A stretch of 64,000 bases of DNA from Mobula hypostoma (Eukaryota), in assembly GCF_963921235.1 (NCBI RefSeq), contig NC_086108.1, positions 16,802,001 through 16,866,000 of the forward strand, written 5' to 3'. The translations under genes and the position numbers were made by a program. Shown piece by piece: positions 21,397-46,988 of this stretch. Each line of letters begins with the position of its first letter. The stretch's first letter is position 1. The notes below the pieces were generated by a model. It saw nothing but the letters and a program-made list of their open reading frames with translations, was not told the origin of the DNA and made no database searches.

Positions 21397-22083
21397 CCCC
21401 TCGGGGGTCAGTGTGGACATGGTGAAGAATTACAAATACCTGGGGATACAAATTGACAATAAACTGGACTGGTCAAAGAACACTGAAGCTGTCTGCAAGA
21501 AGGGTCAGAGCCGTCTCTATTTCCTGAGGAGACTGAGGTCCTTTAACATCTGCCGAACGATGCTGAGGATGTTCTACGAGTCTGTGGTGGCCAGTGCTAT
21601 CATGTTTGCTGTTGTGTGCTGGAGCAGCAGGCTGAGGGTAATAGACACCAACAGAATCAACAAACTCATTCGTAAGGCCAGTGATGTTGTGGGGATGGAA
21701 CTGGACTCTCTGACGGTGGTGTCTGAAAAGAGGATGCTGTCCAAGTTGCATGCCATCTTGGACAATGTCTCCCATCCACTACATAATGTACTGGTTGGGC
21801 ACAGGAGTACATTCAGCCAGAGACTCATTCCACCGAGATGCAACACAGAGCGTCATAGGAAGTCATTCCTGCCTGTGGCCATCAAACTTTACAACTCCTC
21901 CCTTGGAGGGTCAGACACCCTGAGCCAATAGGCTGGTCCTGGACTTATTTCACAATTTACTGGCATAATTTACATATTACTATTTAACTACTTATGGTTT
22001 TATTACTATTTATTATTTATGGTGCAACTGTAACGAAAACCAATTTCCCCCGGGATCAATAAAGTATGACTATGACTATGACT
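21397..22083 (+). mobile_element. Rex1/Babar LINE 3' fragment
   Basis: ORF 21413-21931 (YKYLGIQIDNKLDWS, SRLYFLRRLRSF); (ACTATG)n tail. Confidence 0.9.
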
Positions 22084-22089
22084 AGATAG

Positions 22090-22281
22090 GGGGTGTATGG
22101 GGTGTCAGGGAGGGGTAGCACCTCTGATGGGGGAATATGTTGCGTCCTTTTTAAGGCGGTTAGCCCACCTTTGGGCCTCACCTGGCACTCAGCTCTCACC
22201 TGTGGCTCCTCATAGCTGTTTGCATGCGACAGCGGCCACACCCAGGGCAATGGCTTCGACAAGCCGGCTAAACCAGATGAG
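22090..22281 (+). ncRNA. Putative HDV-like self-cleaving ribozyme at the RTE 5' end, slightly decayed
   Basis: P1 GGGGUGU/ACACCCA, P2 CUCACCUG/CAGAUGAG, P3 GGC/GCC, L3 starting UCCUC, P1.1 CC/GG, P4 UGGCUU/AAGCCG, J4/2 GCUAA (C22268). One mismatch each in P1 and P2. Confidence 0.65.
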
Positions 22282-24058
22282 GGTAGCCAACGGGTCTTAA
22301 ACCCTCGGTGAGATAGGGAGATGTCTATCCCAGCATACGAAGACAGACTCCGGCAGATTGAGCGGATGAGACCCATGGAAGGTCCAACGGTCAAGAAGGC
22401 AATCTCTGCAAACATCGTGGAATGTGTAGAGCACGACAAGGCACAGAAAACATCCTATCTCCAGCTGTCTCGACTCTTGTCTTGCCACTGGATCCAGATG
22501 GGAATTGGGAAGAAAGAGTGAGGCTGATGCTGTGCAACTCTCTCTCACTTAAATCCAAATCAAGTGCGAGTCTCAACACCATCATCATCATCACCCTCAA
22601 CCTTTGAAGACCTGTGGCGATGGGCAAGTGATGAAGCAGTAGGTGTGGATACACTGGGAGCTGTAGTCATGGACCTGCACACAGGCGGCTCAGGTCTAAT
22701 GGTCGTTTTTCACTGACCGAAGCAGCAGTGAAACTCGGCGTCTACCTGGGCCACTGAGCAGCCCTCTTTAGGAACGCACTGCTCACCTCCGTAGCATGAG
22801 GGAGGGGCTAGAAAAGGTGCCCTAAACATTGCCTGCTTCATTATACCCTGGCCAATTTACCGTGGCTGGCGGGGATCCTATCTTGGCGGTCGAACTAACA
22901 CAACATGCCAGGTGATACTGCTCACCATTGGCACTTGGAACATGCGCACGCTATTGGACAACCCTACAGCAAACAGATCAGAGAGAACAGCCTTAGTTGC
23001 CAGAGAGCTTGCAAGATACAACATTGACACAGCAGCCCTGAGTGAGACTCGTCTTGCCAACGTAGGTCAGCTGACTAAAACTGGAGGCGGATACACTTTT
23101 TTCTGGAGCGGTCGCGGCAGCGATGAGCGTCGTGATACTGGAATTGGATTCGCCATCAGGAGTCACCTTGTTCGGAAACTTGCCAGTCTCCACAAGGGTG
23201 TGAACGACCGGCTCATGACACTACAGCTTCCGCTACAGAATGGAGGTCAAGCCATCCTGATCAGCGACTATGCCCCCACAACGACCAACCTGGACGAGAC
23301 AAAGGACAGGTTCTATGAAGAACTAGACACCCTGCTATCAGCAGTGAGCAGCACTAACAAGCTGATCTTGCTCGGCGACTTCAATGCAAGAGTAGGGTGC
23401 GACTCTGCAGCCTGGCAGGGAGTTGTTGGGAGTCATGGAGTGGGCAAATGTAACAGTAACGGCCTACTCTTACTGAAGACCGGTGCAGCACACAACCTCC
23501 TCATCACCAACATAACTTTCTGTCTGCCTACCCATAACAAGACCTCCTGGATGCACCCCCACTCTAAGCATTGGCATCTTATCGACTATGTCATTGTTAG
23601 GAGAAAAGACAGACAGGATGTCAGAGTGACCAAGGCCACGTGTGGTGCTGACTGCTGGACAGATCACAGGCTCATTGTCTCCAAAATGAAGCTCCGCATC
23701 AAACCCAAGAGGGAACCACAAGGAAGCAAGGCTATGAAAAGAATCAATGTGGCAAGGCTGAAGAACCCCAGCATTGCTTCAGCACTGGTTGAAGATTTAG
23801 AAGCCAAGCTTGTTGACTTACACCTTGCAGGCAGCGCTGTGGACGACTGGGATCGCTTCAAGGATGCTGTCCATTCATCTGCACTGAAGATGCTAGAGCT
23901 CTCTACTCGCAAGCAGCATGACTGGTTCGATGAGGATGATGAGGAGATACAGGCTCTACTTGGTGAAATGCACCGTCTTCATCATGCCCATCAGAACGAT
24001 CCATCATCAGCTGCCAAGAAAAATGCCTTTACCAGTGCTCGCAGGATAGTTCAGAATA

Positions 24059-24313
24059 GGAAAGGAAAGGTACGTTGCATCCGGAGTTTCTCCGGTTAGC
24101 AGACGATTTCCCTCCACGCCTCTCTGATGTAGTGGGGAACCACATATTAGGGAAGTTACAGCAGTATTTTGCCATTGGCTTCTGCCAGGTGAGTTTCCAA
24201 AGAGATCACACAGCTTGTAACCCAGCACGGATGGAAAGCGTGCAGGGGAGCCGGCTGGATTCGAACTCAGGACCTTTCGTCCCGAAGTCCGGCACTGATG
24301 CCACTAGGGCAGC
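24059..24313 (-). mobile_element. tRNA-derived SINE (255 bp) inserted in the RTE ORF
   Basis: TSD AGTTCAGAATA at 24048-24058 and 24314-24324; B box GTTCGAATCC on the minus strand; 3' hairpin CCGGAG-AAA-CTCCGG and (CCTTT)n tail. Removal restores the frame RRIVQNKLRKMQDAW. Confidence 0.9.
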
Positions 24314-25383
24314 AGTTCAGAATAAACTGCGTAAAATGCAAGATGCCTGGCTGAGCGCCAAGGCAGATGAAATACAGGGATACGCTGACAGAAACGACTT
24401 GAAACGATTCTATGGAGCCCTTAACACTCTCTACAGACCTCAGTCTCTCGGGAGTTCCCCCCTCCTGAGTATAGATGGTATAATTCTCATTACAGAGAAG
24501 GCTCAGATCCTGCAGAGATGGGCTGAACACTTTGAAGCCATCCTCAACTGACCGCCATCTATTAACGATGAGACGATAGACAGGATTCCTCAGGTCGACA
24601 TCAACAGCGCCATGGATGACCCACCGGTAGTAGCCGAAGTCACGAAAGCTGTCAGCCAGCTATACATTGGCAAAGCCCCGGGGCAGACTCCATACCTGCA
24701 AAGATCTACAAAGCCAGTAGTCCCGTACTTATAGAGAAGCTCACTGAGTTGTTTCAGTCTTTTTGGAAGCCAGGATCCATTCCCCAGGAACTTAAAGATG
24801 CACTCGTCGTACACCTCTACAAAAGGAAGGGCAATCAACAAGTATGCAACATCTACGGAGGAATCTCGCTGCTCTCCATCGTAGGGAAAACCCTTGCAAG
24901 AGTCCTGCTAAATTGTCTGGTCACTCTTCTGGAGCTGGGCCTGCTGCCAGAGTCACAGTGTGGCTTTCGCAAAGTTCGTGGGACTATCGACATGATTTTT
25001 GCCGCGCGCCAACTTAAAAGAGAAGTGTCAGGAGCAGAATCGCAAGCTCTACAGAACTTTTGTTGACCTCACGAAAGCCTTCGACACCGTATGCTGACAA
25101 GGCCTGTGGAGGATCATGTCAAAGTTCAGCTGCCCCGCCAAATTCATTCAGATGGTACGCCAGTTCCATGATAGCTGGATGACCAGAGCGCTGGATGGCG
25201 GAGAATCCTCTAAGGCGTTCCCAGTCACCAATAGTGTCAAACAGGGCTGTGTGCTCGCACCAACACTGTTCAGCATGATGTTTTCTGCCATGCTGAATGA
25301 TGTCTTCTAGGACAGTGATGCTGGAATCAGCCTCAAGTACAGAGTGGATGGGAAGCTCTTCAACCTGAGGAGATTTCAAGCTA

Positions 25384-26227
25384 CAGGTGCACATTCCTTT
25401 ATCTGAAATTCTGAAATCCAAAAAGCTCCGAAAACTAAGTTTTTTTCGCCAACAGCTGATGTCACTCAGGTGTGACGTGACAGCACTAGCAGAGGCCGCC
25501 AGACGTCAGTTGTGGCTCAGCGCTCGTACTGGTTACACGTGCATTTACCGTTCACTGATATTTTGTGTTCACTGTTGACTTTGTGTTTAATTTCACTGTG
25601 AAAATACCAAAAAGAGCTGCAGATACCCCTATGGGTAACAATAAGAAAAAGAGAAGGAAGCATCTATCATTATCAATAATGCAGAAAGTGGAGTTATTGC
25701 AGAAGCTTGATCGTGGTGCGTCTGTGTGGCATCTTACTGAAGAAAATAGTGTCGGAACTACCACTGTATACGATTTAAATAAACAGAAAGACAAGTTACT
25801 GAAGTTTTATGGTGACAGTGACATTCTACATTTATTCCAATAAGTCATTTACCATGTGTTTGATTCGGTTCGTTTGAAGCTGTATATTTTTATGTTTTAT
25901 TGAATGCTTTTGATGGAAATAATATTTTCTGTCATTATTCCCTAAACAATACAGTATAACAACTATTTACATTGCATTTACATTGTATTAGGTATTATAA
26001 GTAATCTAGAGATGATTTAAAGTATACAGGAGGATGTGCATAGGTTTGGTGCACTGTCGGCTCCTAAAGTCCACCACACTGAGACAGGTTAAATAAGGGA
26101 CTTGAACCTACGTGTTTTTTGGTATCGGGTGTGGCGGGGGGGGGGGGGGCAAGTCTGAAATCTGAAAAATTCTGAATTCCAAAATGCAACTGGCCCCGAG
26201 GATTTCAGATAAGGGATTGTGGACCTG
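25384..26227 (+). mobile_element. Non-autonomous Tigger/pogo element (844 bp) with transposase N-terminal HTH remnant
   Basis: 26-bp TIRs with 3 mismatches; TA TSD; peptide KRKHLSLSIMQKVELLQKLDRG..VGTTTVYDL (CENP-B-like HTH). Removal restores the RTE frame RRFQAITKVKE. Confidence 0.92.
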
Positions 26228-27323
26228 TATTACCAAAGTGAAAGAGAGCATTCTGAGAGACTTCCTCTTTGCCGATGACTGTGCCCTGTATGCTGGCTCG
26301 GAGCCAGAGATGCAAGTCCATATGGACAAATTCTCCACGGCTTGTGCTAACTGGACTCACCACCAACATCAAAAAGACCGAAGTCATGCACCAGCCTGCC
26401 CCTCATACACCGCACACAGAACCGAAAATCACAATCAAAGGACAGAAACTACAGGCAGTTGACCAGTTTACTTACCTTGGCAGCACCCTCTCCCGAGCAG
26501 TGACTATTGATACAGAAGTTAACTGCAGAATAGCAAAGGCAAAGACTGCGTTCCACTGTATGGGAACGCCAAGGAATTAGTCCAGTAACAAAACTGAAGG
26601 TCTATAGAGGTGTGGTACTCACTACCTTCCTGTATGCCTGTGAAACGTGGACTGTGTATGGAAGGCATGCAAGACAGCTCAACCATTTCCACATGACTTG
26701 TTTTCGCAGAATATCAGGCATCAGATGGCAAGACAAAGTACCAGACATTGAAGTTCTCTCTAGAGCAAGTCTACCATCAGTCTACACACTGCTGATGAGA
26801 GCAGAGACCCGGTGGGCAGGTCATGTCATCCGCATGCCTGATGAGCGCACACCCAAGCAGCTTTTTTTTGGGGAAAACTCTGCTGGAAGACGCTCGCATG
26901 GAGGGCAGAAGAAACGTTACAAAGACACACTAAAAGCCTCCCTGAAGCCACTTGACATAGACACTACCACCTGGGAAACGCTGGCACAAAATTGCCCTAC
27001 CTGGTGCGGTCTTATCCATAAGGGCTGTCAAGCTTACAAAGCAAGGCGCATTGCTGAAACTCAACATAAGCATGAGCTGCGCAAGTCCAGACCCACCAGT
27101 GTAGCAACTGCAGTGCTTACACATGACTGCCCAACATGTGCCAGGACATTTCGTGCACGAATTGACCTGACCAGTCATCTTCAGATACACTGCATCCAGT
27201 CTCAAAAGTGACTAATGATGTCGAGGTCTTCATCGATGACAACGATGGATGAACAACAGTTACAGATAAGTATCATCCAAAGCTTTAATCAAGAATTAAC
27301 AAAATTCTAGCAACAAAACGTAA

Positions 27324-42900: not shown

Positions 42901-45070
42901 ACACTATCATTAACAACCTTTATCCATTTTCTTAACAATCATCTAACAGATTTACAGTTAGCCAATAACTTAACAACTGGCAGATTTTGGAAGCTGAGAA
43001 AAAAAATAATAAAAACCCAGGGAACCCCATGTGGTTAGAACAGAAAGTGCTAACTCCACACAACCAACAAGAAATTAGTGATTAAACCAGTCAGTGAAAC
43101 AGTGAAGTAGCTGCTTTCCCTGCCATGTTCAAATAAATGTATTTGCAATACGAGAAATTTTGACTTTTAGCCTAAGTGATTGGAATTGCATTACTAAAAT
43201 GATAGGAAATTTAATTATATGATATAAAATGCACAGGTTGCTAAATCAAATGACAGTTCCTGTTCTTACACAATGACGTTGTTCCTCTGCAATACCTAAT
43301 AAGGGAGGAACTTGTATATTACCTAGTACTATTCACCATTGAGTCACACAGCCCTAATGCTGGAGGAACTTGCATATTACCCAGCTCCATTCACCATTGT
43401 TGTACGGCATAGAAACAAGACCTTCGGCTCAACTTATCTAACTGTCTAGCCCGATAAACTAATCCCTTCTGCTCGTGCTGGACCCATTGCCCTCTAAACC
43501 TCCTCTATCCATGTACTTATCTATATGGCTTTTAAACATTGCCCAAACAATGTTAAACCAATGCCCTCGCTTTTTAACATACTCTTCCTGGGAAAAAGAC
43601 TTTCACCTTGTCTAAGCCTTCTTGATCTTATATACCTCCATCAGGTCAGCCCTCAATCTCCTACACTCCAGGGATAATGTCCTAGTCTACACAATTTTTC
43701 CTTGTAACTCAGGCCCCCAAAGTCCAGGCAACGTCAAAGTAAGTCTTTTCTGTATTCTTTCTAGTTTAATAACATTTTTTCTGTTACAGGGTGACCAAGA
43801 CTGTACACAATACTCAAAGAGCAACATCACCTATATCTTATATAACTACAATATTGTTTGCATGATTTGTTTTGATATTTTTCCTCTTTCTCTGTAGGCA
43901 CTTGGGGTTTAGTCTTTTTTTTTAATTGGGTTATTTTGTGACTGCCTGTTAAGCAAACTAATCTCAAGGTTGTATAATTTATAAAGTTGTTGATAATAAA
44001 TGCACTTTGAATATTTGAATCTTGAACATAAATTCCCAATTCCTATACTTGGTTCTAACTGATGACAGCCAGGATATCAAACACCACCTTCATTTACCAC
44101 TCGATATACCCATAATGCTGCTTTCAGCAAACTGTGCACTTGCACTCTTAAGTGCCTTTGTTCCATAACACTTTTCAAGGCCCAGTTTTGGGCTTGTTTA
44201 TTGTTAATAATGGACTCCAACATCTTCCCAACCACCTAAGTCAAGATAACTGGCTTATAATTTCCTGTCTTTTGCCTTAGCCTCAATATCTTTCGTCAAC
44301 CTTGTCCTTCATTCTAACAGAAACATGCAGGCCCTAAATTTTTGACATCATACTTTAAAAGGCTTGCCACTTGGCACACACTCTTTTCCCTATGAACAAT
44401 TTTGCCCAATTAACTGCTGTAATATCCTGTCTAATGGCTCCAAAATTTGCTCTGCCCAAGTTCAGGTCCTTAACCAACTGTATCCTTCTCCATAAATATT
44501 TTAATACTAATAGAGTTGGTTTCAGATTTATGGAGAAGGATAGATCAGGTCTTTGAGTTGGGATTCTAAATTAAAGAAAGGCCTATTTTAAATGCATCAG
44601 AAAGGATATGTCAAGTCTGGATTGAGATAAGTTGTTTCCTGGCAACGGTGTGCTTAGTAAGTGGGAGGCCTACAAAAGTGAAATTTTGAGATTTCAGAAT
44701 TTGCATGTTCCTGTCAGAATCAAAGGCTAGGCACCAGATTAACCTGAACCATTGGGCTCCTGAACCAAAGTGGATAACTTCACTCACCCCAGCACTGAAC
44801 TGATTCCATAACCTATGGTCTCACTTTCAAGGACTCTACAATTCAAGTCCTCAACATTATTTATTACACATTTTTATTATTATTATTATTTTGTTTTCTT
44901 TTTGTATTTGCACAATTTGGCGTCTTTCGCTCATTGTTGTTTGTCCATCTTTGTGTGCAGATTTTCATTGATTCTATTGTGTTTCTTTGTATCTACTGTG
45001 AATGCCTACAAAAATGAATCTCAGGGTTGAATATAGAAACATATATATATGCAGTAAGTACTTTTAATAA

Positions 45071-45645
45071 TGGGGTGTATGGGGTGTCAAGGAGGGGTAG
45101 CACCTCTGGTGGGGGAACATGCCGCGTCCTTTTCAGGGCGGTTAGTCCACCTTTGGTCCCCACCTGGCACTCAGCTCTCACCTGTGGCTCCCCGTAGCTG
45201 TTTGCATGCGACAGCGGCCACACCCCGGGCAACGGCTTCGACAAGCCGGCTAAACCGGGTGAGGGTAGCCGACGGGTCTCAAACCCTCGGTGTGATAGGG
45301 AGTTGTCTATCCCAGCATGTGAAGACAGACTCCGGCGGATTGAGCGGACGAGACCTATGGAAGGTCCAACGGTCAAGAAGGCGGTCTCTGCAAGCGTCGT
45401 GGAACATGTAGAGCAGTACAAGACACAGAAGACGTCCTGGTCAACCACTGCGCCTAGTCCCATCTCCAGCTGTCTAGACTCTGTCTTGCCACTGGATCCA
45501 GATGGGAATTGGGAAGAGAGAGTGAGGCTGACGCTGCGCAACTCTCCCTCACTTAAATCCAAATCACGCGCTAGTCTCGACACCATCATACTGGTGTCGA
45601 GGTCCTCATCGATGTCAATGATGGACGAACAACACGCACAACAAC
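45071..45645 (+). mobile_element. Bipartite non-autonomous RTE derivative (RTE 5' UTR fused to RTE 3' tip)
   Basis: 45072-45589 aligns with 22090-22585; 45595-45633 aligns with 27219-27257; TSD ACTTTTAATAA at 45060-45070 and 45646-45656. Confidence 0.9.
45072..45263 (+). ncRNA. Putative HDV-like self-cleaving ribozyme, all helices intact
   Basis: P1 45072-78/45220-26, P2 45177-84/45256-63, P3 45186-88/45217-19, P1.1 C45190-91/G45227-28, P4 45233-38/45243-48, J4/2 GCUAA with C45250. Confidence 0.75.
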
Positions 45646-46988
45646 ACTTTTAATAAATAAGTTTGATAATAAATACGTTAAGACTTTATTCCCTGGAGCA
45701 TAGGAGATCTGATAGAGGTATACAAAATTCAGGCAGACCTTTTCCACTGATGTTGAGTGAGATTAGAGGTCATAAGTTAAGTGTAAATAGATAGGAGGGG
45801 TGTAGAGGGCTATGGTCCAAGGCAAAAAAACAATTCCAGTTGCAGTTAGAGGTAGAATCTGCTGCATGTCAACTTTGGCAGGTTTTGTAGGCCATTACTT
45901 CCGACAAAGTAAAACCTAATTATTATGAATGGCTGTAATGCTTCACTTCCAGATGAGCTCAACACCTTTTATGCCATCTATAATTCTGATGACAACACAA
46001 CTATTGTCACAACAGATCGAAGGTTGAGCAGTAACACCTTGTACTTAATGTCAGCAAGACCAAGGAATTATTGTGGACTTCAGGGGAGGGAAATCGAGGG
46101 ACTACACACCAGCCTCATTAATAAATCAGTAAGTGGAAATGGTGAGCAGTTTCAAGTTCCTAGGTGTCAATATTTCTGAGGATCCATCCTGGCCCCAACA
46201 TATTGATGAATTACAAACAAGAGAAAATCTGCAGATGCTGGAAATCCAAGCGACACACACAAAATGCTGGACGACTCAGCAGGCCAGGCAGCAGCTATGG
46301 AAAAAAGTACAGTCATACAGTCAACATTTTGGCCCAAGACCCTTCAGCAGGACTGGAGCAAAAAGCTGAGGAGTAGATTTAAAAGGTGGGAAGAGGGGAG
46401 ACAGAAACACAAGGTGATAGGTAAAACCTGAAGGGGGAGGGATGAAGTAAAGAGCTGGGAAGTTGGTTGATAAAAGAGATACAGGACAGAAATGGGAGTC
46501 TGATAGAAGTGGATAGAAGGCCCTAGAAGAAAGGGGGGTCTACCCAGATGGAATATAACCAGAATCAGGTTTATTATTACCAGCATTGTTAACTTAGTAG
46601 CAGCAGTTCAATGCATAATATAGAATTTTTAAAAAGTAAATCAATTACAGTATATGTATATTGAATAATTAAAAATTGTGCAAAAACATAAATATATTAA
46701 AAAAGTGAGGCAGTGTTCATGGGTTCAATGTCCATTTAGGAATCAGATGGCAGAGGGGAAAAACCTGTTCCTGAATGGCTGAGTGTGTGCCTTCAGGCTT
46801 CTGTACCTCCTACGTGATGGTAACAGTGAGAAAAGGGAATGCCCTGGGTGCCAGGGGTCCTTAATAATGGACGCTGCCTTTCTGAAACACCGTTCCTTGA
46901 AGATGTCCTGGGTACTTTGTAGACTAGTACTCAAGATGGAGCCAACTAAATTTATGACCCTCTGCAGCTTCTTTTGGTCCTGTGCAGT

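Follow-up and report, generated by a model that had tools for sequence, protein, structure and literature searches.

A probable HDV-like ribozyme with a helix inserted in L3 at the 5' end of a compact LINE and its 575-nt derivative in Mobula hypostoma

Ribozymes like that of hepatitis delta virus (HDV) have been described as releasing the long interspersed nuclear elements (LINEs) R2, RTE, baggins and L1Tc from co-transcripts (PMC6765202, PMC3774820, PMC5786205). As described in the same sources, the 5' ribozymes of R2, R1, R4, RTE, LOA/baggins and Ingi/L1Tc are nested double pseudoknots with a long J1/2, a catalytic C in J4/2 and a U...G pair in L3. Bipartite derivatives, which keep the ribozyme and have lost all of the parent but its 5' and 3' ends, have been reported for RTE, Ingi, Vingi and R2 (PMC5786205), and include the R2 short internally deleted elements (SIDEs; PMC3414825), NARTc, RIME, derivatives of Vingi-1_EE and Bov-A (PMC5786205). 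Here, a stretch of 64000 nucleotides (nt) of the Mobula hypostoma genome (contig NC_086108.1, positions 16802001 to 16866000; referred to below as the window) was analysed, and positions 45072-45263 were found to share the features listed for LINE 5' ribozymes. It is quite likely that this segment is a self-cleaving HDV-like ribozyme that forms the 5' end of a compact LINE and of its 575-nt derivative. LINEs with a 5' ribozyme of this type, J1/2 domains of great length and deletion derivatives that carry a ribozyme are already known. The helix inside L3 appears to be new, and the parent LINE, the hairpin-carrying relatives with compensatory changes and the siblings with a short L3 are added here.

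Positions 45072-45263 contain an HDV-type nested double pseudoknot in which all of the conserved core letters are in place, and both direct reading and a descriptor scan located P1, P2, P3, P1.1, P4, J4/2 and L3 where the original prediction had placed them (Table 1). U45189 and G45194 occupy the positions of U20 and G25 of HDV, and both are kept in two LINEs from other organisms (L051 and L087) and in two sibling families (C1 and C2) that are described below. C45250 is the predicted general-acid cytosine, equivalent to C75, and lies in a J4/2 with the G-C-N-A-A sequence that characterises HDV-like ribozymes. In all 42 aligned copies, the J4/2 columns G178, C179, T180, A181, A182 and A183 show no change, and the siblings have GCUAA or GC(G/A)AA, with GCAUAAA in one C1 copy (L165). 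P2 includes one U.G pair in the window copy, and the A present at 45257 in the majority of the 42 aligned copies makes eight perfect pairs. The P1.1 CC/GG is present in all five rows of an alignment of relatives (A3) and in 13 of the 15 copies tabulated, and as it never varies it gives no covariation evidence either way. The extra hairpin in L3, which had been claimed for two copies, was indeed found with identical letters in the second window copy, at 22090.

Table 1. Features of the ribozyme fold, the elements that carry it and the related families
Feature	Position	Strand	Basis or remark
P1 5' strand, GGGGUGU	45072-45078	+	predicted cleavage 5' of G45072
P1 3' strand, ACACCCC	45220-45226	+	7 Watson-Crick pairs with 45072-45078
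J1/2 peripheral domain, 98 nt	45079-45176	+	minimum-free-energy fold, alignment fold
P2 5' strand, CUCACCUG	45177-45184	+	descriptor scan
P2 3' strand, CGGGUGAG	45256-45263	+	most copies read CAGGUGAG
P3 strands, GGC / GCC	45186-45188 / 45217-45219	+	descriptor scan
L3, 28 nt, begins U-CC-CC-G	45189-45216	+	7 nt at that place in siblings
Extra L3 hairpin	45197-45215	+	stem GCUGUU (45197-45202) / GACAGC (45210-45215), loop UGCAUGC (45203-45209)
P1.1, CC / GG	45190-45191 / 45227-45228	+	GCAA directly after GG
P4 hairpin, CGGCUU-CGAC-AAGCCG	45233-45248 (strands 45233-45238, 45243-45248)	+	5 of 6 pairs change two-sidedly
J4/2, GCUAAAC	45249-45255	+	GCUAA core at 45249-45253
Bipartite non-autonomous element, 575 nt	45072-45646	+	518 nt of LINE 5' end, about 46 nt of LINE 3' end, (ACA/CAA)n tail
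Target-site duplication ACTTTTAATAA, 11 letters	45060-45070 and 45646-45656	+	same letters recur
Decayed parent LINE copy	22090-27258	+	endonuclease and reverse-transcriptase frames broken
Decayed ribozyme region of LINE copy	22090-22281	+	G25-equivalent to A, ACACCCA, UGGCUU, CAGAUGAG; hairpin letters intact
Extra stretches in window LINE copy	about 24059-24312 and 25384-26227	+	absent from other copies
Window family (hairpin form)			P1 GGGGUGU/ACACCCC; P2 CUCACCUG/CAGGUGAG; L3 28 nt
Family C1			P1 (A/G)GGGUGU/ACACCCU; P2 CUCACUUG/CAAGUGAG; L3 UCCUCGU
Family C2			P1 GGGGUAU/AUACCC(C/U); P2 CUCACGUG/CACGUGAG; L3 UCCAAG(C/U)

The GG-GCAAC run after P1 and the GCNAA of J4/2 are common to the HDV and window ribozymes. 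The genomic HDV ribozyme differs in having a short J1/2, an L3 of 8 nt (U20-U27) and a G1.U37 wobble, but its L3 likewise begins U-CC-NN-G, with U20.G25 on P3 (PMC1874588). The bases of U20 and G25 are described as extending the P3 stack, and the change G25A lowers HDV activity ~3000-fold (PMC1874588); G25A also impairs a Caenorhabditis briggsae ribozyme (PMC13635239). As only C26 and U27 lie between G25 and the 3' strand of P3 in HDV, a helix inserted there could point away from the active site, and the L3 hairpin is expected to project from the P3/L3 stack and to leave the active site undisturbed. The extra domains described for large HDV-like ribozymes such as drz-Agam-2-1 lie outside the core, in J1/2 or P4 (PMC4908430), whereas the second extra helix at the window locus is inside L3, a loop that helps to build the active site.

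The window ribozyme resembles drz-Agam-2-1 in having a J1/2 of ~100 nt that is predicted to form a stable domain uniting P1 and P2, and large HDV-like ribozymes are reported to be activated by structured J1/2 domains (PMC4908430). The 98-nt J1/2 contains a second GGGGUGU (45081-45087), which is paired with 45163-45172 in a long stem in both the minimum-free-energy and the alignment folds. This modelled stem fits the 'pinch' role proposed for peripheral J1/2 domains in that source, and may also explain the rare use of the second P1-like strand, as only one of 29 copies in a sample described below starts near base 10. Doubling or tripling of the P1 5' strand was seen in several unrelated families (45072-45087 in the window, L120:2658-2673, L114:195-207, L059:268-279 and L095:199-220), with an offset of 9 nt in the window and L120 and of 3 nt in L114, and recalls the duplicated cut sites discussed for R2 (PMC3774820).

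The 5' ends of genomic copies were examined in the source genome (G000, 3.48 Gb), in which a search with the 575-nt element gave 2908 first-look candidates; 40 of these were scored, at 96-100% identity to the query. Among the 30 best-scored loci, base 1 is the start in 23 and base 2 in four, while bases 3, 6 and 8 each account for a single copy; the flanks are mutually unrelated and include clear target-site duplications. As ranking by score favours full-length copies, a second sample was drawn with an internal query (45290-45560). The 29 other copies obtained in this way start at base 1 (13 copies), base 2 (two), base 3 (three), base 5 (two), base 8 (one) and base 10 (one), and the remaining seven are truncated at scattered points between 30 and 124. 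Clustering of copy ends at the first GGGGTGT had been set as a test beforehand, and the internal-query sample gives a sharply defined end at that place. In the window copy itself, a single base (T45071) separates the upstream target-site duplication from G45072, in agreement with the claim that the predicted cut site is one base off the element end defined by the duplication. As for known LINE 5' ribozymes, the predicted cleavage 5' of the first P1 base thus coincides with the element 5' end.

Some variation at the 5' junction was seen. The base before G1 in the 23 copies that start at base 1 is T in 18, A in two, C in two and G in one, often in the context ...AT. Extra bases lie between the target-site duplication and G1 in L003, L004 and L017, and a partial third GGGTGTAT repeat is present in L034 and L149. 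Such junctions have the look of untemplated addition or template jumping on an RNA whose 5' end is fixed.

The 575-nt element is an internally deleted, bipartite derivative of a single-frame LINE of ~4.1 kb. Its bases 1-518 correspond to 22090-22585, at 87% identity, and bases 518-563 to 27213-27258, and the 4.6 kb between the matched ends encodes an endonuclease (Pfam Exo_endo_phos) and a reverse transcriptase. Parent and derivative are therefore 18 kb apart within one window. As in bipartite non-autonomous LINEs, only the LINE 5' and 3' ends are present and there is no conserved frame; it resembles R2 SIDEs, NARTc, RIME, the Vingi-1_EE derivatives and Bov-A in consisting of the parent's ends with the ribozyme retained, but differs from them in being a new family in the source genome. 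The original description as a non-coding retroposon holds for the type of element, though the parent LINE in the same window had gone unseen. A 98-residue frame that starts with ATG (45357-45653, + strand) crosses the deletion junction in the window copy. However, in ten LINE copies the stops that follow the one ATG they have in common are distributed evenly among the three frames (77, 73 and 70), so that no coding signal is seen in the 5' region, in agreement with the earlier description of the retroposon as non-coding.

A search with the LINE itself gave 7307 first-look candidates, and the other copies are without two stretches of the window copy (Table 1), from which the unit length of ~4.1 kb follows. 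Of 20 LINE copies retrieved, 11 begin within the first seven bases (1-7) of this 5' sequence. One copy has an uninterrupted frame of 1109 residues (P0001) with RVT_1 and Exo_endo_phos domains, and the 3' untranslated region (UTR) is ~47 nt. No Pfam match to RNase H was found in P0001, and LINE relatives have a C-terminal C2H2 finger that scores 16-19 bits, just below the Pfam cut-off. The carrier of the ribozyme is thus a LINE with a C-terminal C2H2 finger in a 3.48-Gb animal genome. Pfam, a solved-structure search (best match L1 ORF2p, E 6e-27) and source names did not separate RTE from Vingi. The single frame, endonuclease, RVT_1 and ~47-nt 3' UTR are compatible with the RTE clade as judged from sequence, while a C-terminal C2H2 finger without RNase H presumably fits an Ingi/Vingi-like architecture. 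Vingi elements, the sister clade of Ingi, are compact, lack RNase H and, like the LINE here, give rise to internally deleted derivatives.

Two families with the same core and a short L3 were found in the same genome. A search for this P3 and P1 3' strand with a 7-nt L3 gave 12 genome matches, compared with one for the reversed control, and the loci retrieved define C1 and C2 (Table 1). At its sixth pair, P2 has C-G in the hairpin family but U-A in C1 and G-C in C2, with five pair types among 20 sequences, and the sixth P1 pair is G-C in the window family and A-U in C2. Both families also end at the predicted cut site, as eight of eight C2 copies begin at the first P1 base (G or A) with unrelated flanks, and a C1 query in which P1 starts at position 21 gave 39 non-self matches, of which 25 have their first base at query positions 21-24. 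A covariance model of the core (R1), for which only hairpin forms were used, gave the siblings 43.9-56.1 bits (E 6e-10 to 2e-13) and skipped nothing but the hairpin sub-tree. After UCCNNGU, L3 of the window family is 21 nt longer than that of the siblings, the additional letters being an A, the 19-nt hairpin and a G. On this sequence comparison, the L3 hairpin appears to belong to an insertion of 21 nt that is specific to the lineage and follows base 6 or 7 of L3. The hairpin family gave 1304 first-look candidates with a 271-nt query and the short-L3 form 258 with a 249-nt query, both being lower bounds from different queries. Three C1 copies (L155, L156 and L166) share an upstream repeat (CCCTCCCTATCTCTGT...) and begin 2-3 bases inside P1, and these look like duplicated units of a larger repeat and not independent insertions.

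Relatives of P0001 with 57-72% identity are numerous and lie mostly on ~4-kb contigs. With a protein alignment of 21 rows, 71 loci were obtained from metagenome contigs, and a profile of the 200-nt ribozyme region matched two of these, L051 (E 5e-45) and L087 (E 2.5e-22). Both of these LINEs keep the L3 hairpin, in an L3 of 26 nt in L051 and 28 nt in L087. P1 of L051 is GUGGUGU/ACACCAC in place of GGGGUGU/ACACCCC, such that pairing is preserved. L087 has the P2 CUUACCAG/CUGGUGAG, the P4 CUACG/CGUAG and a U opposite the first P1 base. The core (bases 97-192) shares 88% identity between a G000 LINE copy and L051, compared with 60-81% elsewhere in the first 1.5 kb, coding sequence included, and is the best conserved 96-nt stretch of that region; with L087 the core alone aligns. 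The compensatory changes in P1 of L051 and in P2 and P4 of L087, both of which carry the hairpin, suggest that the catalytic fold has been under selection after the insertion.

Model R1 also gave matches of lower score in L095, L059 and L114, and direct inspection added L062, L098, L110 and L120; in all seven, an HDV-like core lies on the coding strand, upstream of the frame. L3 in these distant relatives is 7 nt (UCCUCGU, UCCACGA, UCCCCGU and others), and most have a U opposite the first P1 base. The hairpin form, with no gaps in L3, is present on contigs of four coded organisms, and one contig from the run of another organism has the short-L3 form joined to a 3' half like that in the window. 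A reverse-transcriptase tree of 20 rows, from which L059 and L120 were left out as the reverse-transcriptase part is absent from their contigs, requires two changes of the hairpin label, and its well-supported branches are compatible with a single origin of the hairpin.

Covariation was assessed in two alignments, A3 and A5; a MAFFT alignment (A4) that misaligned P2, P3 and L3 was left out, and relatives were cut by anchored segmentation. In A3 (five rows), 96.8% of cells are paired and four pairs have changed two-sidedly, a level reached by one of 500 shuffles and by none of the slid controls, which gave 0-1. In A5 (20 rows), 94.8% of cells are paired and 11 of 23 core pairs have changed two-sidedly (0 of 500 shuffles; slid controls 0-3). 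P1 lies outside the covariance model, and its two compensatory changes (L051 and C2) were read directly. Covariation had been proposed as a check of the original prediction, and two-sided changes are seen in P2 and P4 and, by direct reading, in P1, but not in the hairpin stem. Together with the covariance-model matches to the siblings and the clustering of 5' ends, the two-sided changes support the HDV-like identity first claimed for the fold.

The possibility that the fold is a chance resemblance within a GC-rich 5' region is extremely remote, for although a loose descriptor finds about one match per shuffled window, the stability of the fold is not exceptional and Rfam detects no HDV family, no chance match reached the quality of the real one (0 of 15), 11 of 23 pairs covary (0 of 500 shuffles) and the predicted cut site is the copy 5' end in three families. 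In the real window, the loose descriptor, run on both strands, matched a single locus, 45072-45263, and dinucleotide-shuffled windows gave 24 matches in 19 shuffles and then 15 in 19 more. The real match has a P1 of 7 Watson-Crick pairs, a P2 of 10 pairs and a P4 of 6 pairs, and the quality thresholds for chance matches were 7 Watson-Crick pairs in P1, >=8 pairs in P2 and >=5 pairs in P4 together. The bare topology is thus weak evidence, and the excess over chance comes from the coincidence with copy 5' ends and the covariation in relatives.

Several observations weigh against a self-cleaving ribozyme at this locus. The fold is no more stable than expected (-83.4 kcal/mol compared with a shuffle mean of -82.1, z = -0.27), and 79 of 200 shuffles fold at least as stably. 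No match was found in the whole window at the Rfam gathering score, and in E-value mode the sole related match in 44900-45800 was RF02682 at 45214-45262, with 14.1 bits against a cut-off of 44 (E = 9). However, the loci of 11 relatives likewise yielded no HDV family in E-value mode, where the sole matches, two of int-alpA in J1/2, were at chance level, and as Rfam thus misses the relatives with a short L3 as well, it is a weak test for ribozymes with a J1/2 of ~100 nt. Among 58 distinct copies that span the ribozyme, 41 pass the descriptor and 22 do so with P1 on the first G, and the second GGGGUGU at 45081 is also able to pair with the P1 3' strand. The covariation signal lies in P2 and P4, while P3, P1.1 and the hairpin stem are nearly invariant and offer conservation alone; in the five A5 rows with the hairpin, five of its six stem pairs are invariant and one varies one-sidedly. 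A5 was fitted to the model structure and so leans towards it, its cells count sequences and not events, and each relative from outside the genome is a single copy.

Two further points on the same side concern the catalytic core itself. The pair at the cut site (G45072-C45226) is G-C in the window family and L051, a feature that the original prediction had missed, unlike the G.U of HDV and unlike known LINE 5' ribozymes, whereas a U stands opposite the first P1 base in L087, C1, some C2 copies, L114, L098 and L120. A G.U wobble at the cut site helps to bind the catalytic metal. As the pair here is G-C, the cleavage rate may be lower. Also, a 28-nt L3 with a 6-bp hairpin replaces the 7-8 nt of known LINE 5' ribozymes in the loop that builds the active site. 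Search descriptors for HDV-like ribozymes limit L3 to about 7-8 nt. A search for an L3 insertion in HDV-type ribozymes found none in the accessible part of the literature, in which a 28-nt L3 is likewise without precedent.

Based on homology to the ribozymes of sister elements and the agreement between cut site and copy ends in three families, self-cleavage 5' of G45072 is the most likely function of the fold. The element would be transcribed inside a longer host or read-through transcript, where the double pseudoknot would fold and C45250 and a bound metal would cut 5' of G45072, freeing an RNA whose first base is exactly G1. The LINE protein could then recognise the 3' end shared by LINE and derivative (~46 nt and the (CAA)n tail) and copy the RNA to a new site, giving rise to target-site duplications. 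Like the original prediction, this scheme, which is modelled on R2, RTE, baggins and L1Tc, would imply independence from a promoter. It would also imply mobilisation in trans, which is likewise presumed for R2 SIDEs, NARTc, RIME, the Vingi-1_EE derivatives and Bov-A. Contigs from four runs, for which an RNA origin is uncertain, include none that spans 45040-45072, but contigs break at repeat borders anyway.

A promoter that sets G1 would explain the copy 5' ends equally well, which also counts against the scheme above, and two alternatives make use of one. In the first, which is unlikely, the first 200 nt would act as both ribozyme and internal promoter, like Pr77/L1TcRz of L1Tc, such that no read-through would be needed. 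There is a precedent in the Ingi/L1Tc clade (PMC3383444, PMC4035085), and a promoter of its own would make the very high copy number of the element easier to explain. The C-terminal C2H2 finger of the LINE and the lack of an RNase H match point the same way through the presumed Ingi/Vingi fit noted above.

In the second, which is judged quite unlikely, the hairpin form would have lost or nearly lost self-cleavage and the 5' fold would serve in protein binding, as a cap-like structure or in translation start, with an internal promoter setting G1. The insertion in a loop of the catalytic core and the G-C pair at the cut site favour such a loss, and there are parallels in L1Tc, where the first 77 nt are described as both internal promoter and ribozyme (PMC3383444), and in R2, where the protein binds part of the ribozyme region and HDV-like folds have been proposed to aid translation (PMC6765202). 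However, U20, the CC/GG, G25 and the J4/2 cytosine are all kept, hairpin carriers show the compensatory changes in P1 (L051) and in P2 and P4 (L087), the short-L3 siblings end at the same place, and the hairpin family has the larger number of first-look candidates, albeit as lower bounds from unlike queries. Self-cleavage by the hairpin form is the preferred reading.

Whether the L3 hairpin is a working module of the ribozyme or retrotransposon RNA, and not a tolerated passenger, is a separate matter, and the former is proposed here only tentatively and is improbable. The hairpin loop includes a 6-nt palindrome, GCAUGC in the source genome (45203-45209) and in the decayed L056 (about 385-393) and ACAUGU in L051 (205-213), while the loop of L087 (237-243) has the overlapping 4-nt palindromes UGCA and CAUG alone. 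UGCAUG is also the Rbfox binding motif. A palindromic loop might base-pair with its counterpart on a second RNA, in a kissing-loop dimerisation comparable with that at retroviral dimer initiation sites, or serve as a binding site for a protein of the host or of the element. If so, the module would couple self-cleavage to RNA packaging or regulation, and could explain the at least about five-fold higher number of candidates than for the short-L3 siblings. The G000 copy L002 carries both of the loop changes that convert GCAUGC to ACAUGU.

If the ribozyme is active as predicted, the delta-type fold is more tolerant than search descriptors assume and such variants are being missed, as Rfam missed both the hairpin form and its ordinary relatives. 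Matched forms with and without the hairpin in one genome make a clean comparison of structure and function possible. The LINE also adds one more lineage with a 5' ribozyme and bipartite derivatives, a link that is raised as an open question in PMC5786205, and if it proves to be of Vingi type it would be the missing fourth clade of this link. LINEs of Vingi and RTE type that are compact and have a single frame now serve, together with their own UTRs, as tools for gene insertion (PMC13708176), so that the role of their 5' UTRs is of practical interest.

The frame of P0001 (L032:160-3486, - strand; window 22912-24099) has no M in its first 46 residues and no ATG before the endonuclease domain, and in relatives the predicted proteins begin only a few residues ahead of it. 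These copies have either lost their start codon or are translated from an unconventional start. The second extra stretch of the window LINE copy (25384-26227) includes a frame (25565-25843) with a basic, helix-turn-helix-like part, and may be a nested transposon fragment.

Relatives of the LINE protein with 25-71% identity were also found on contigs filed under bacterial assemblies or metagenome-assembled genomes (L167-L174), and none of the six of these eight loci that were searched gave a ribozyme match; they are most simply host or eukaryote DNA binned with bacteria. The J1/2 of L095 (301-376), L110 (47-133) and L059 (about 330-400) shares a Y-shaped domain, CCACC..CUAG..GAAAAG..GGG...CCC..GGUGG, with apparent covariation, on which int-alpA scores at chance level (24-26 bits, E 0.4-0.9). 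In the window, C-terminal fragments of other LINE reverse transcriptases flank both the parent copy and the derivative (21413-21931, + strand, and about 45700-46200), such that the region is a mosaic of retroelements.

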